From the NCBI GenBank assembly GCA_012295275.1, contig CM022677.1:19716001-19780000 (forward strand): a stretch of 64,000 nucleotides of DNA, written 5' to 3'. Position 1 is the stretch's first letter, and each line of letters starts with the position of its first letter. A program made the position numbers and the translations under genes. The DNA comes from Chrysomallon squamiferum. Lineage: Eukaryota; Animalia; Mollusca. The notes under the pieces were generated by a model that was not told the origin of the DNA, did no database searches, and saw only the letters and a list, made by a program, of their open reading frames with translations. Positions 38,555-63,825 of this stretch are shown piece after piece.

Positions 38555-38800
38555 AAATATTTTATCTACTTATTCAGTTTTCATTGCAGCATACGACTGT
38601 AAAATTATTTCAGTGGCGATATATTAACTCGATGCTGTTGAGAACATCTGTTGTCCGTCCATCCATTCACACTTTGAGATCAGACTTCGTTTGATTGGCT
38701 GATTGTGCCAGCGTTCGTCTGAATTAATACCAGTTTCTGTCAACGTGAATTTCAGACATACTGCAGCTACGTACAGTCCGATACCAAAATGAAGGTAAAA
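38555..38800 (+). promoter_or_regulatory. Highly conserved promoter/5'UTR/exon 1 block of paralog A
   Basis: Near-identical inverted copies at 50725-50975 and 56185-56432. Contains ATTGG (CCAAT box) and ends CCAAAATGAAG|GTAAAA. Confidence 0.75.
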
Positions 38801-41800
38801 GTGCATTTGTGCATGTTGTGTTTGTACCTATATACGTGTGTATGTATTTAAAGATAGATAGACAGATAGAGATAGATAGATAGAAAATAGATAGATAGAT
38901 ACATGGACAGATATAGATATATTTTTCTTTTTATATACGCTATGACATTTGATAAATAGATCAATATACAGATAGGTAGGTGGGGAGGTAGGTAGGTAGA
39001 TAGACAGATAGACAGATGGATAGACAGATGGATAGACAGATGGATAGACATGTATACTCATTGATAATTACTTACATTGATTTTAGTGTCTGTACATTGT
39101 TCTAAGATGCATGAATTATTGTAATGACTGTTAGAACCATTGTAACACAAACAGCTGTATATCAATGTCATCGTCGCTGATGTTGTTCTAGTTTTATACG
39201 TTGTTGCAGTTACTGTCTTGTCAGTTCGTTGCCATCGTGATACTGGATATTTTCTGCGGCGCTTGCGCAAATAATCGTATGTATTATTATTACTTTTTAT
39301 TGTTATTATTATTATTGTTGTTGTTGTTGTTGTTGTTGTTGATGTCATTATTACAATTATTATTGAAATAGCAATTACTATTACTTTAATTATTATTATT
39401 ATTATCATCATCATCAGCAGCAGCATCAACATTTATTTTCTACTACAACGATAACTAATACTGCTGTTCAACTACTACTACTAATTCTTTCTCTTCTTTT
39501 TTTTCTTCTTCTTCTTCTTCTTCTATTATTATTATTATTGCTATCGTTGAGAGAGAGAGAGAGAGAGAGAGAGAGAGAGAGAGAGAGAGAGAGAGAGAGA
39601 GAGAGAGAGAGAGAGAGAGAGAGAAATGAAATAAAGAACAATAAGAGAAAGCATTTATTCATTGTATTCAGATTTAGTTTGCGAAGTAATGTTACTGAGC
39701 GGTCAGAAAATACTCTTCCCGTGGGCTCTAATCGACGACTTTGTAATATCCTGCCAAAAGAATCAACTAGCGGTTTGGAGAAAATGCAAAGTTTCCAGAA
39801 ATGAATATCGCGTAGCGGGGAAGTGTCAAAGTGTGACGTGGAATTTTTACGTATGTAATATAAAAAAAAAAATGACGTAAACACATTGATCATCTTTTCT
39901 TCTTCTTCTTTTTTTTTTTATCTAGCGGTAATGAAACCTTTTTTTTTATAATCACTAGTTTCAGTTATCTGTGTAAATATACTTTATAAGTTGTCAACAA
40001 AATAAAAATAAATAAAAATAAAAAAATAAAAAAAAAATAAAAAAATACTGACCTTTTGTTTCTTCTTTTTTTTTTGTTTTGTTTTTGTTTTGTTACCAGT
40101 AACTTTCTGTATACACTTTCTTCAGTTACATTTATTATTATTATTATTATTATTATTATTATTATTATTATTATTATTATTATTATTATTAGTGTTGTTG
40201 TTGTTGTTGTTCTTTCTTTATTTTCATTTGTTATTTTTTTTTATTATTAATATCATTTCTTTCTTTGGTTTGTTTCCTTGTTGTTGTTTTTTTTGTTGTT
40301 TTTTTTTGTTTTGTTTTTGCTCTTCTGCTTCTTCTTAGTGTTGCTAATGTTAGTTGTTGTTGTTGTTGTTGTTGTTGTTACTTTATTTTCATTTGTTATT
40401 TTTTTTTGAATAAGATGATTATTTTTTTTTTTTTGTTTGTTTGTTTGTTGTTGTTATTGTTGTTTTTTCCCTTGTTTTTTGTTTTCTGCATCTTTTTAGT
40501 GTTTTTCGTCATCATCATTATAATAATCGACATTATTATTACTCCTACTACTACATCTGCTGCTGGTACTACTACTACTACAACAACTACTATTATTTTG
40601 TATTATTATTATTATTATTAATACTATTACTACTTTACTACAATTTCTGTTACTACTATTTCTACTGCTGCTACCACTATTCTTAATATTATTACTATTG
40701 TTACTACTATTTATTCATTTATTAATTAATTAATTTATTTATTTATTTATTTTCAAAGCTGTGGTTTACTTTGAAACTACCCGTATCAGATACGTTAGTC
40801 CGGGTGTTTCTGATTTATACAAAAATAAAACGGTATAGTGGGTATGTTTTGTTTTTTACATTATTTTTCTTGTTACAGCTGTCACTATTATTGATTTTAT
40901 TATACTACTACTACTACTACTACTACTACTACTACTACTACTACTACTACTACTATTATTGTTGTTGTTCTTATTATTATTATTGCTTTTATTATTATTA
41001 TTATTATTACTATTATTATTATTATTATTATTATTATTATTATTATTATTATTATATTGCTTTGTTGTTGTTATTATTATTATTGTCAATATTAGTTTAT
41101 TATTATTATTGGTTATTATTATTATTATTGTTATTGTTATTATTATTATTATTGGTTATTATTATTATTATTGTTATTGTTATTATTATTATTATTATTA
41201 TTGTTATTATTATTATTGTTATTATTATTATTATTATTATTATTATTATTATTATTACCGACAGTTGGATGTCGTTTATCATTGAGAATGGAGAAGAATT
41301 TAAGATTGGTCTGTTACAACTGGCAGACAGCAATAAGCTGACTTTTGAAGAAACTGTAAAGAAAGTGCTTTTGAGTCAGCAGTATGGCGCATTTTCACTA
41401 CCAACCGGGCGACTGAACGCCATCTTCGTACATTTCAACATTCATAAAGTAATCGTAAGTAATCTTTCTCTTTTTTTTTTTTTTTTTCCTTCTAACTCTG
41501 ACGTAACCGCTCGTGCTCTGCAACGTCACAAACACGCAGTCGTCTATTTTTGGCTGCCTTCTTCCTAATCGTGTGATACGTTTTGAAACGAGATCGATTT
41601 AAGAAAAAAAAAAAAAAAAACAGTTTTCAGTTTGTTGTGTAAAATTAATGGTTTCGTAAATACAGCTTCACCATTTTCCTAATAGTAATAATCTGCCTGT
41701 CTGTACATACATCTCAGTTGATTATGATGTGATTGATTGAGAGTGGGTAAGAAAGTAAGTATGTAATTTTGTATGCTTTTTTTGTGTATAATGATGTGTA

Positions 41801-62600: not shown

Positions 62601-63825
62601 TGTTTGTTTGTTTCTTTATTTGTTTGTGTGTTTGTTTATTTGTTTGTTTGTTTGTGTATTTCTTTGTTTCTTGATTTGTTTGTTTGTTTGTTTATTTGTT
62701 TGTGTGTTTCTTTGTTTCTTTGTTTCTTTGTGTGTTTGTTTATTTGTTTGTGTGTTTCTTTGTTTTTATTTGTTTGTTTATTTATGTGTTTAGTTATTTA
62801 TTTGTTTATTTATTTATTCGTTTATTTATTTAGTATTTGTTTATTTATTTATGTGTTTGTCTGTCTGTTTGTTTGTTTATTTATTTTTTATTTTTTTTAG
62901 TGTTTGTTTGTTTGTTGCTTTGTTTGCTTATTTATTTGTTTATTTATTCATTCATTCCATCACTTCATATGGTAATAATTATAATAATAATAATAACAGT
63001 AATAGTAGTAACAGTAATAAAAGTTGGAGAACACTAATAATGATGATAATGATAATAATAATAATAATAATAATAATAATAATAATAATAATAATAATAA
63101 TAATAATAGTAGTAGTAGTAGTAGTAGTAGTAGTAGTAGTAGTAGTACGTGCCTTCAATTCCATACATAGTGACGGACAGTTGCAATATTACTATGGCAA
63201 CCAACTGACAATACAGTGCCTGTAACAAAAATTATGATCACAGTGCTGTCAGAGGCAATTTGTAATCGACAACGTCACAAAATAATCAATAGGAGCATTG
63301 ATGATAATGCTGATATTAATAATATATATAAAAAAGTAATAGTAATAGTAGTGATAATTTTAATAATAGAAATTACAGTAGCAATAGTAACAATGCAAGC
63401 AATAGAAATGCAATAGTAGTAGTAGTTGTAGTAGTACTGGCAGAGTAATAGTATCAGTTGTAGTAGTAGTACTAGCAGAGCAGTGGTAGTTGTAGTAGTA
63501 TGAATAGTAGAAAGAGAATAGTAGTGTTAGTAATAATCAGAGTTGTGAAGTGGTTACAGGATAGTTGTAGTAATTGTAGTAATAGTAGTAGTAGTAGTAG
63601 TAATAGTAGTAGTAGTAATAGTAGTAGTAGTAATAGTAGTAGTAGTAGTAATTGCTGCAGAAACAATGGTAGAAATATAAACTGACAGAAATAATTTAAG
63701 TAATAAACAAAAATGTATACGATATTCAGGTTAAGACAAGAAGAGAGACATCAGCAAAGGAAGAGACAAAGAAATATAAATATTCAAGTGATCAATGAAC
63801 GATGTTCTTTTATGTTTACCTTCAT
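59628..63825 (-). CDS. Uncharacterised secreted protein, paralog D (218 aa, most divergent)
   Basis: Exons 63825-63820 (MK), 63219-63153 (GC donor), 62541-62369, 61283-61198, 60559-60352 and 59744-59628. Exon phases (0,1,0,2,0) and sizes match A-C, and the frame is open. Confidence 0.82.
61790..62245. repeat. 55-bp minisatellite in intron 3 of paralog D
   Basis: Unit AAAATTAATGTACAATGATAGCAGCTATGACAACACCAACATCAACGTTACGTCT, about 8 copies. Confidence 0.9.

Follow-up and report, generated by a model that had tools for sequence, protein, structure and literature searches.

An uncatalogued four-gene family of predicted secreted proteins, with a probable galectin-type domain, in the vent snail Chrysomallon squamiferum

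Which proteins, if any, are specified by the later part of a 64,000-nucleotide stretch of the Chrysomallon squamiferum genome (assembly GCA_012295275.1, contig CM022677.1, positions 19,716,001 to 19,780,000; hereafter the window), and what could they do? A sequence-only reading had placed there four genes, A to D, of six exons each, and had described their products as a secreted family with a degenerate galectin-like domain. We found that the four-gene cluster is real and that A-D make up an uncatalogued family with one junction transcribed; what the proteins do is answered below with less certainty. The window, which has 31% G+C and is rich in microsatellites, holds the genes at the following places.

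38789..42414, forward strand: gene A, open frame of 213 amino acids with AATAAA right after the stop; coding exons 38789-38794, 39210-39276, 39672-39850, 40759-40841, 41265-41454, 42298-42414
44867..50739, reverse strand: gene B, open frame of 214 amino acids; coding exons 50739-50734, 50206-50140 (GC donor), 49517-49348, 47761-47679, 46230-46026, 44980-44867
52079..56199, reverse strand: gene C, 215 amino acids with an X placed at a frame break; coding exons 56199-56194, 55641-55575 (GC donor), 54961-54793, 54033-53951, 53391-53187, 52195-52079
59628..63825, reverse strand: gene D, 218 amino acids, the outlier of the cluster (23-26% identity to A-C); coding exons 63825-63820, 63219-63153 (GC donor), 62541-62369 (five cysteines), 61283-61198, 60559-60352, 59744-59628

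The gene models were obtained by searching for open exons flanked by splice signals, followed by modelling by coordinate, and gave six coding exons and a protein of 213-218 amino acids for each of the four paralogues. The exon sizes are common to A-D: a 6-nt Met-Lys exon, a 67-nt hydrophobic exon and a cysteine exon of 169-179 nt are followed by exons of 83-86, 190-208 and 114-117 nt. As had been claimed, the 6-nt exon, the 67-nt signal exon and identical intron phases (0,1,0,2,0) are present in all four models; in B, C and D, the 67-nt exon can be joined only through a GC donor. Acceptors are AG in all 20 introns; donors are GT in 17 of them and GC in the three second introns listed below. 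Full-length paralogy was recovered by blastp (E values of 9e-55 for A-C, 2e-79 for B-C, 3e-11 for A-D and 2e-16 for C-D), the protein identities being 38% for A-B, 41% for A-C and 54% for B-C. When gene A was compared with the exons of the other genes, E went down to 6e-12, against a best value of 0.16 in 20 shuffles of the same region, and the cluster is therefore far beyond chance. Exon modelling, blastp paralogy and the shuffled control together bear out the four genes at the coordinates and strands listed. Two details of the models deserve separate mention.

50139, 55574 and 63152, reverse strand: GC-AG intron 2, present in three of the four paralogues including the distant D (GT in A)
54793..54961, reverse strand: exon 3 of C, 169 nt versus 170 in B, out of frame near 54840 and with a stop near 54830

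As the remaining exons of C are open, the break in its exon 3 would reflect either a fault of the assembly or an allele that has recently become a pseudogene. Intron 3 of gene D also contains a 55-nt minisatellite, detected by self-matches (61737-62260, reverse strand).

A run search with exon 5 of gene B returned one small-share holder, X1, and three RNA runs bearing the same organism label. X1 acts as genomic DNA, its contigs continuing from exon into intron. In one of the three RNA runs (X3), a 288-letter contig spans the whole exon 5 of a C-like copy, with 9 of 207 letters differing. This contig starts one base beyond the exon 5 donor; of the 30 displayed letters of its 80-letter loose end, 29 match C exon 4 at its 3' end, the total length being fully explained as 1+205+82. 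The coverage of exon 5 and the match to exon 4 mean that the exon 4-5 junction of a C-like variant copy is spliced as modelled, as known from this one RNA contig. Spliced transcripts at the predicted junctions have thus been seen at one of the 20; most of the other 19 lie outside the two stretches compared, and those 19 stand as predictions.

Relatives of A-D were found in none of the protein, family and structure databases searched, and no description of their architecture was met in the literature (subscription papers lay outside the coverage). Four family peptides did not occur in the papers searched, and family peptides were absent from the searched supplements of the scaly-foot snail paper PMC7142155, one file of which was outside the search and whose tables may lack sequences. 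The earlier statement that no named family is recognisable holds in these searches, although signal-peptide proteins with a galectin domain are known in snails (galectin-related protein, GREP; PMC5433772).

How the cluster evolved can be read in part from the unequal conservation of its segments. Upstream of the start codon, 170 nt show 96-97% identity between A, B and C, whereas coding exons 2-6 are only 59-79% identical. The conserved 5' block extends for about 240 nt before decaying, and D stands outside it (62-63%).

38555..38794, forward strand: promoter and 5' leader block of A, with the Met-Lys codons at its end; 27-30 of 30 matches to B and C in each of eight 30-nt blocks
50734..50973, reverse strand: promoter and 5' leader block of B, common to A, B and C
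56194..56433, reverse strand: promoter and 5' leader block of C, common to A, B and C

This suggests that the regulation of A, B and C is homogenised or strongly constrained, and joint expression is predicted from the near-identical block. The diversifying selection proposed for the family found no support. The ratio of nonsynonymous to synonymous change (dN/dS), calculated pairwise by the Nei-Gojobori method with our own script and bootstrap bounds, was 0.42-0.81 for the mature region, with an upper bound below 1 in five of six pairs, and 0.43-0.96 for the C-terminal domain alone; pairs with D are near saturation. Between the window and the public-run copies of exon 5, replacement changes make up 7 of 9 codons for C and 4 of 6 for B, 77-78% being expected without selection, which is no excess. 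The family is under weak constraint, and positive selection is not shown.

The likeness of B and C is uneven along exon 5: of 35 letters, 33 agree at its 3' end and 17 at its 5' end. Where run contigs depart from C, they carry the letter of B at 5 of 10 exon places and 5 of 7 nearby intron places. Both patterns fit gene conversion, but cross-mapping between paralogue contigs and ancestral states held in common could account for part of them. For the 3' end of exon 5 (46030-46112 and 53187-53280), X1 yields six or seven variant contigs that overlap, and in some of them letters of the B and C types are mixed; these may be alleles, further copies or conversion tracts.

As for the N-terminal half, residues 8-18 form a hydrophobic stretch in all four proteins (mean hydropathy 2.7-2.9), later 19-residue windows never exceed 1.53, so that no further transmembrane-like stretch is present, and each protein has one or two N-glycosylation sequons. 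On these grounds A-D are predicted to be soluble secreted proteins, the call being based on hydropathy. The cysteine module is a single exon of 56-59 amino acids with four cysteines and a fifth in D. The motif QLAVWRKC was found in A, B and C as reported; the first cysteine gap, given as 23-24 residues, had been miscounted, the gaps being 22-10-12 for the pair B and C and 23-10-12 for A and D. Sushi (CCP) modules, to which this spacing had been likened, have four cysteines bonded 1-3 and 2-4, a tryptophan between cysteines 3 and 4 and an all-beta fold. Here, the common tryptophan precedes cysteine 3, a tryptophan between cysteines 3 and 4 occurs only in D, the last gap is 12 residues, and the structural model consists of a helix and a hairpin, albeit at a low predicted local distance difference test score (pLDDT 62). 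Since Pfam, PDB, atlas and fold searches also returned no sushi match for this exon, the likeness is unsupported. Chitin-binding CBM14 (peritrophin-A) domains likewise gave no match in the Pfam or fold searches, the four cysteines (five in D) contrasting with the six-cysteine pattern that goes with their tachycitin-like fold, and the module is too short for an Ig domain.

The C-terminal domain takes up 129-136 amino acids over the last three exons. Galectin domains are about 130 amino acids long and encoded by three exons (PMC5751359); a large S3-F4 exon is present in all scallop galectins, and a small one carries S1 and F2 (PMC10343441), and the large exon of LGALS13 has 211 bp (PMC6651626). 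A-D thus share with galectins a three-exon domain of about this length with a large middle exon, a support that the sequence-only reading had not used; no intron phases of galectin genes turned up in the literature for comparison. AlphaFold, given exon 5 of this domain alone, predicted four successive strands (residues 4-9, 13-21, 27-34 and 37-41; pLDDT 64), as would be expected of S3-S6. The strand motif GEFPLxIGEMNxIYILFE, reported earlier for the family, is carried by B and C, has a weak version in A and is absent from D. In shorter form, FPLxxG occurs in B and C and FSLxxG in A, and the last exon starts with VMVQG in B and VRRNG in D; we take these to stand at the positions of galectin FPFxxG and VxVNG. 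The galactose-binding motifs HxNxR and WxxE are absent from the domain in all four proteins, and their loss is thereby borne out. In the language-model atlas, exon 5 of C had eight named rows, all under 0.9, seven of which are families of concanavalin/LamG-type sandwiches or their likely kin.

Galectins are two-sheet jelly rolls (S1-S6, F1-F5) that bind beta-galactosides independently of calcium. Galectin was returned by no search tool (protein, family, structure or atlas), Pfam PF00337 was matched by none of the 11 exon peptides, which were scanned as single exons, and no galectin row is among the atlas neighbours, the nearest animal row being a mollusc FAMeT cluster (0.80, 105 of 256 features). 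The fold is therefore a matter of inference. Judging by length, three-exon layout, strand pattern and weak language-model neighbours, we nevertheless consider a galectin fold rather likely.

The explanation that we prefer, although we would put it at somewhat below an even chance, is that A-D are a secreted, co-expressed panel of recognition proteins comparable with GREP, in which a galectin-derived sandwich without the galactose site is joined to a disulfide module. A three-exon molluscan galectin domain (small S1-F2, large S3-F4 and last exon) would have gained an upstream signal exon and the four-cysteine exon, and the joined gene would then have been duplicated in tandem. The signal would route the protein through the endoplasmic reticulum, where the module could form two disulfides and the one or two sequons be glycosylated. 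The remodelled concave face would bind glycans other than galactose, or proteins, with a preference of its own in each paralogue; the ligands would most likely be microbial surfaces, the bound microbes being clumped or tagged. The cysteine module might fill the place of the GREP Ig domains, linking copies or docking on host cells, and the common 5' block would turn on A, B and C together. A recognition role is supported by what lies nearby in the window, namely two C-type lectin genes and an exon for a Kazal inhibitor. As a precedent, the GREP of snail plasma has altered pocket residues and binds proteins of parasites (PMC5433772), and galectins are reported to be expanded in the vent snail Gigantopelta (PMC7895826). 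Of what had been proposed earlier, we favour a lineage-restricted family, predicted to be secreted, whose galectin-like domain is without the galactose motifs; the recognition function is inferred. A bolder version seems distinctly unlikely: the vent snail would have independently made a cytosolic galectin into a secreted receptor family by means of the signal exon and an undescribed four-cysteine module, with a homogenised promoter and tract swapping, the resulting panel of non-galactose lectins sorting sulfur-oxidising symbionts from other microbes and representing a second gastropod origin of VIgL-like variable lectins, without Ig domains.

The same galectin-derived architecture could instead serve a structural role, as a secreted cross-linker or matrix component of mucus, shell, scale or adhesive that binds glycoproteins or its own kind. 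The sugar motifs are lost, as in the co-opted GRIFIN and GRP, and a dN/dS below 1 fits weak constraint; furthermore, a galectin cross-links frog glue (PMC11237159), and vent-snail shell and sclerite proteomes hold lineage-restricted uncharacterised proteins (PMC11871041). However, A-D have no low-complexity or repeat region, and a search of supplements of the latter paper with three family peptides gave no occurrence (one file was unreadable, one truncated, and the tables may lack sequences). We regard this role as unlikely.

Also unlikely is that the C-terminal domain is a concanavalin-like sandwich of a different kind, a diverged FAMeT (Methyltransf_FA, PF12248) being the likeliest, within a secreted matrix or recognition protein. 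The atlas neighbour mentioned above speaks for it, and the stretch YFGFS of C presumably resembles the FAMeT C-terminal motif. FAMeT domains, of unknown function, have been described from secreted proteins of adhesives and shells (PMC9382459) and are probably not enzymes (PMC10015273). On the other hand, PF12248 was matched by none of the 11 single-exon peptides, and the length and three-exon layout fit galectins. The strand spacing at both ends of the domain probably also fits galectins better than FAMeT. No account of FAMeT intron positions in molluscs was found in the literature.

A reproductive function (egg coat, capsule fluid, seminal fluid or gamete recognition, in one gland and under relaxed or episodic selection) appears improbable. 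Conservation of the 5' block and signal while the mature exons diverge is the pattern that we associate with gamete and gland protein families, and relative to the window the X1/X3 copies have 9 changed letters among 207 in exon 5 against 1 among 228 in a mid-intron piece. Yet the sole RNA contig comes from a library labelled metatranscriptomic, and an excess of replacement changes is lacking. Least probable of all is an unrelated or new all-beta fold with a convergent strand pattern, including a role as venom, as suggested earlier, or as a defensive toxin: the blank database searches would suit it, but the sizes of the exons, the length of the domain and the atlas neighbours all favour a sandwich of the concanavalin type, nothing points to toxicity, and toxin rows in the fold search of the cysteine exon had E values of 3 or worse.

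Beyond the cluster, the window contains two tandem C-type lectin genes on the reverse strand (1197-2720 and 5700-7350; Lectin_C E of 6.5e-10 and 3e-4), the second of which is interrupted by an in-frame stop (5799-5801) and appears decayed. Close to them lies a further piece related to the family.

3460..3526, reverse strand: orphan copy of the 67-nt signal exon, 35 kb from gene A (tblastn E of 6e-4 to 0.03; blastn 85% over 55 nt, E of 6e-13)

Its CAG acceptor and GT donor are intact, it lies about 750 nt upstream of the C-type lectin gene's own signal exon, and its phase is the same as that of the lectin's next exon. No family-type Met-Lys exon was found for it in the window, nor any other family exon nearby. 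It may be what is left of a fifth gene, or else serve as an alternative signal exon, the latter hinting at shuffling onto other lectins. A Kazal protease-inhibitor exon (35791-36015, reverse strand, E of 3e-13) is located 2.8 kb upstream of gene A on the opposite strand. Between D and C there is a fragment resembling the reverse transcriptase of a long interspersed nuclear element (58968-59225, forward strand), whose RVT_1 E of 0.016 falls short of the cut-off. Stretches at 12361-12600, 18150-18305, 20074-20223 and 22294-22446 (forward strand) look coding and might together make up one further gene; Pfam gave no family for them at a useful E.

If the preferred reading is true, the fold of galectins, which are defined by the absence of a signal peptide and by one conserved galactose site, has been reused for new ligands in a secreted, glycosylated and diversified branch, and a chemosymbiotic snail offers concrete candidates for microbe recognition or coat building. 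Near-identical promoters against proteins of 38-54% identity in A-C make co-regulated diversification testable. Should the domain be FAMeT-like, A-D would still be an uncatalogued secreted group, though a less surprising one.

Among the known systems, GRIFIN and GRP/LGALSL are conserved single vertebrate genes without a signal peptide, unlike the diverging secreted cluster of A-D. Both have galectin folds without carbohydrate binding (PMC3396283). With FAMeT proteins, A-D have no Pfam match in common, and the atlas score of 0.80 is only a lead; the A-D domain is presumably also longer than the Pfam FAMeT model. FAMeT proteins of molluscs and sea stars are secreted, as is predicted of A-D, and have a beta-rich domain of unknown function (PMC9382459, PMC10015273). 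The F4-type galectins (scallop, LGALS7, LGALS13; PMC10343441, PMC5751359, PMC6651626; for general background see PMC3269628 and PMC11934519) share with A-D the domain of about 130 amino acids, the small-large-short exons and the strand pattern. As described there, they lack a signal peptide, are unglycosylated, mostly of the tandem-repeat type in lophotrochozoans, and keep the galactose motif (HxNxR, W and ExxR in S4-S6), whereas A-D have a predicted signal, sequons, one domain, no such motif and no detectable sequence similarity. Amphimedon sponge galectins combine one galectin domain with a classical signal peptide, as predicted in A-D, but are single-exon genes recognisable as galectins, and no cysteine module is reported for them (PMC10343441).

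The closest likeness is with GREP of Biomphalaria glabrata, a member of the VIgL together with FREPs and CREPs, which occurs in snail plasma and has disulfide domains at the N-terminus and, at the C-terminus, a single galectin domain with a non-canonical pocket (PMC5433772). GREP has two IgSF domains, while A-D have a single four-cysteine exon and a probable galectin fold, and no sequence match was found; GREPs are reported only from Heterobranchia (PMC8878817). The one or two N-terminal IgSF domains of the VIgL are missing from A-D, whose secretion is predicted and whose C-terminal domain is of putative lectin type. By the defining features of those groups, A-D are neither galectins nor GREPs; most likely, they would be a secreted variant of the galectin domain that works in the way GREP does.
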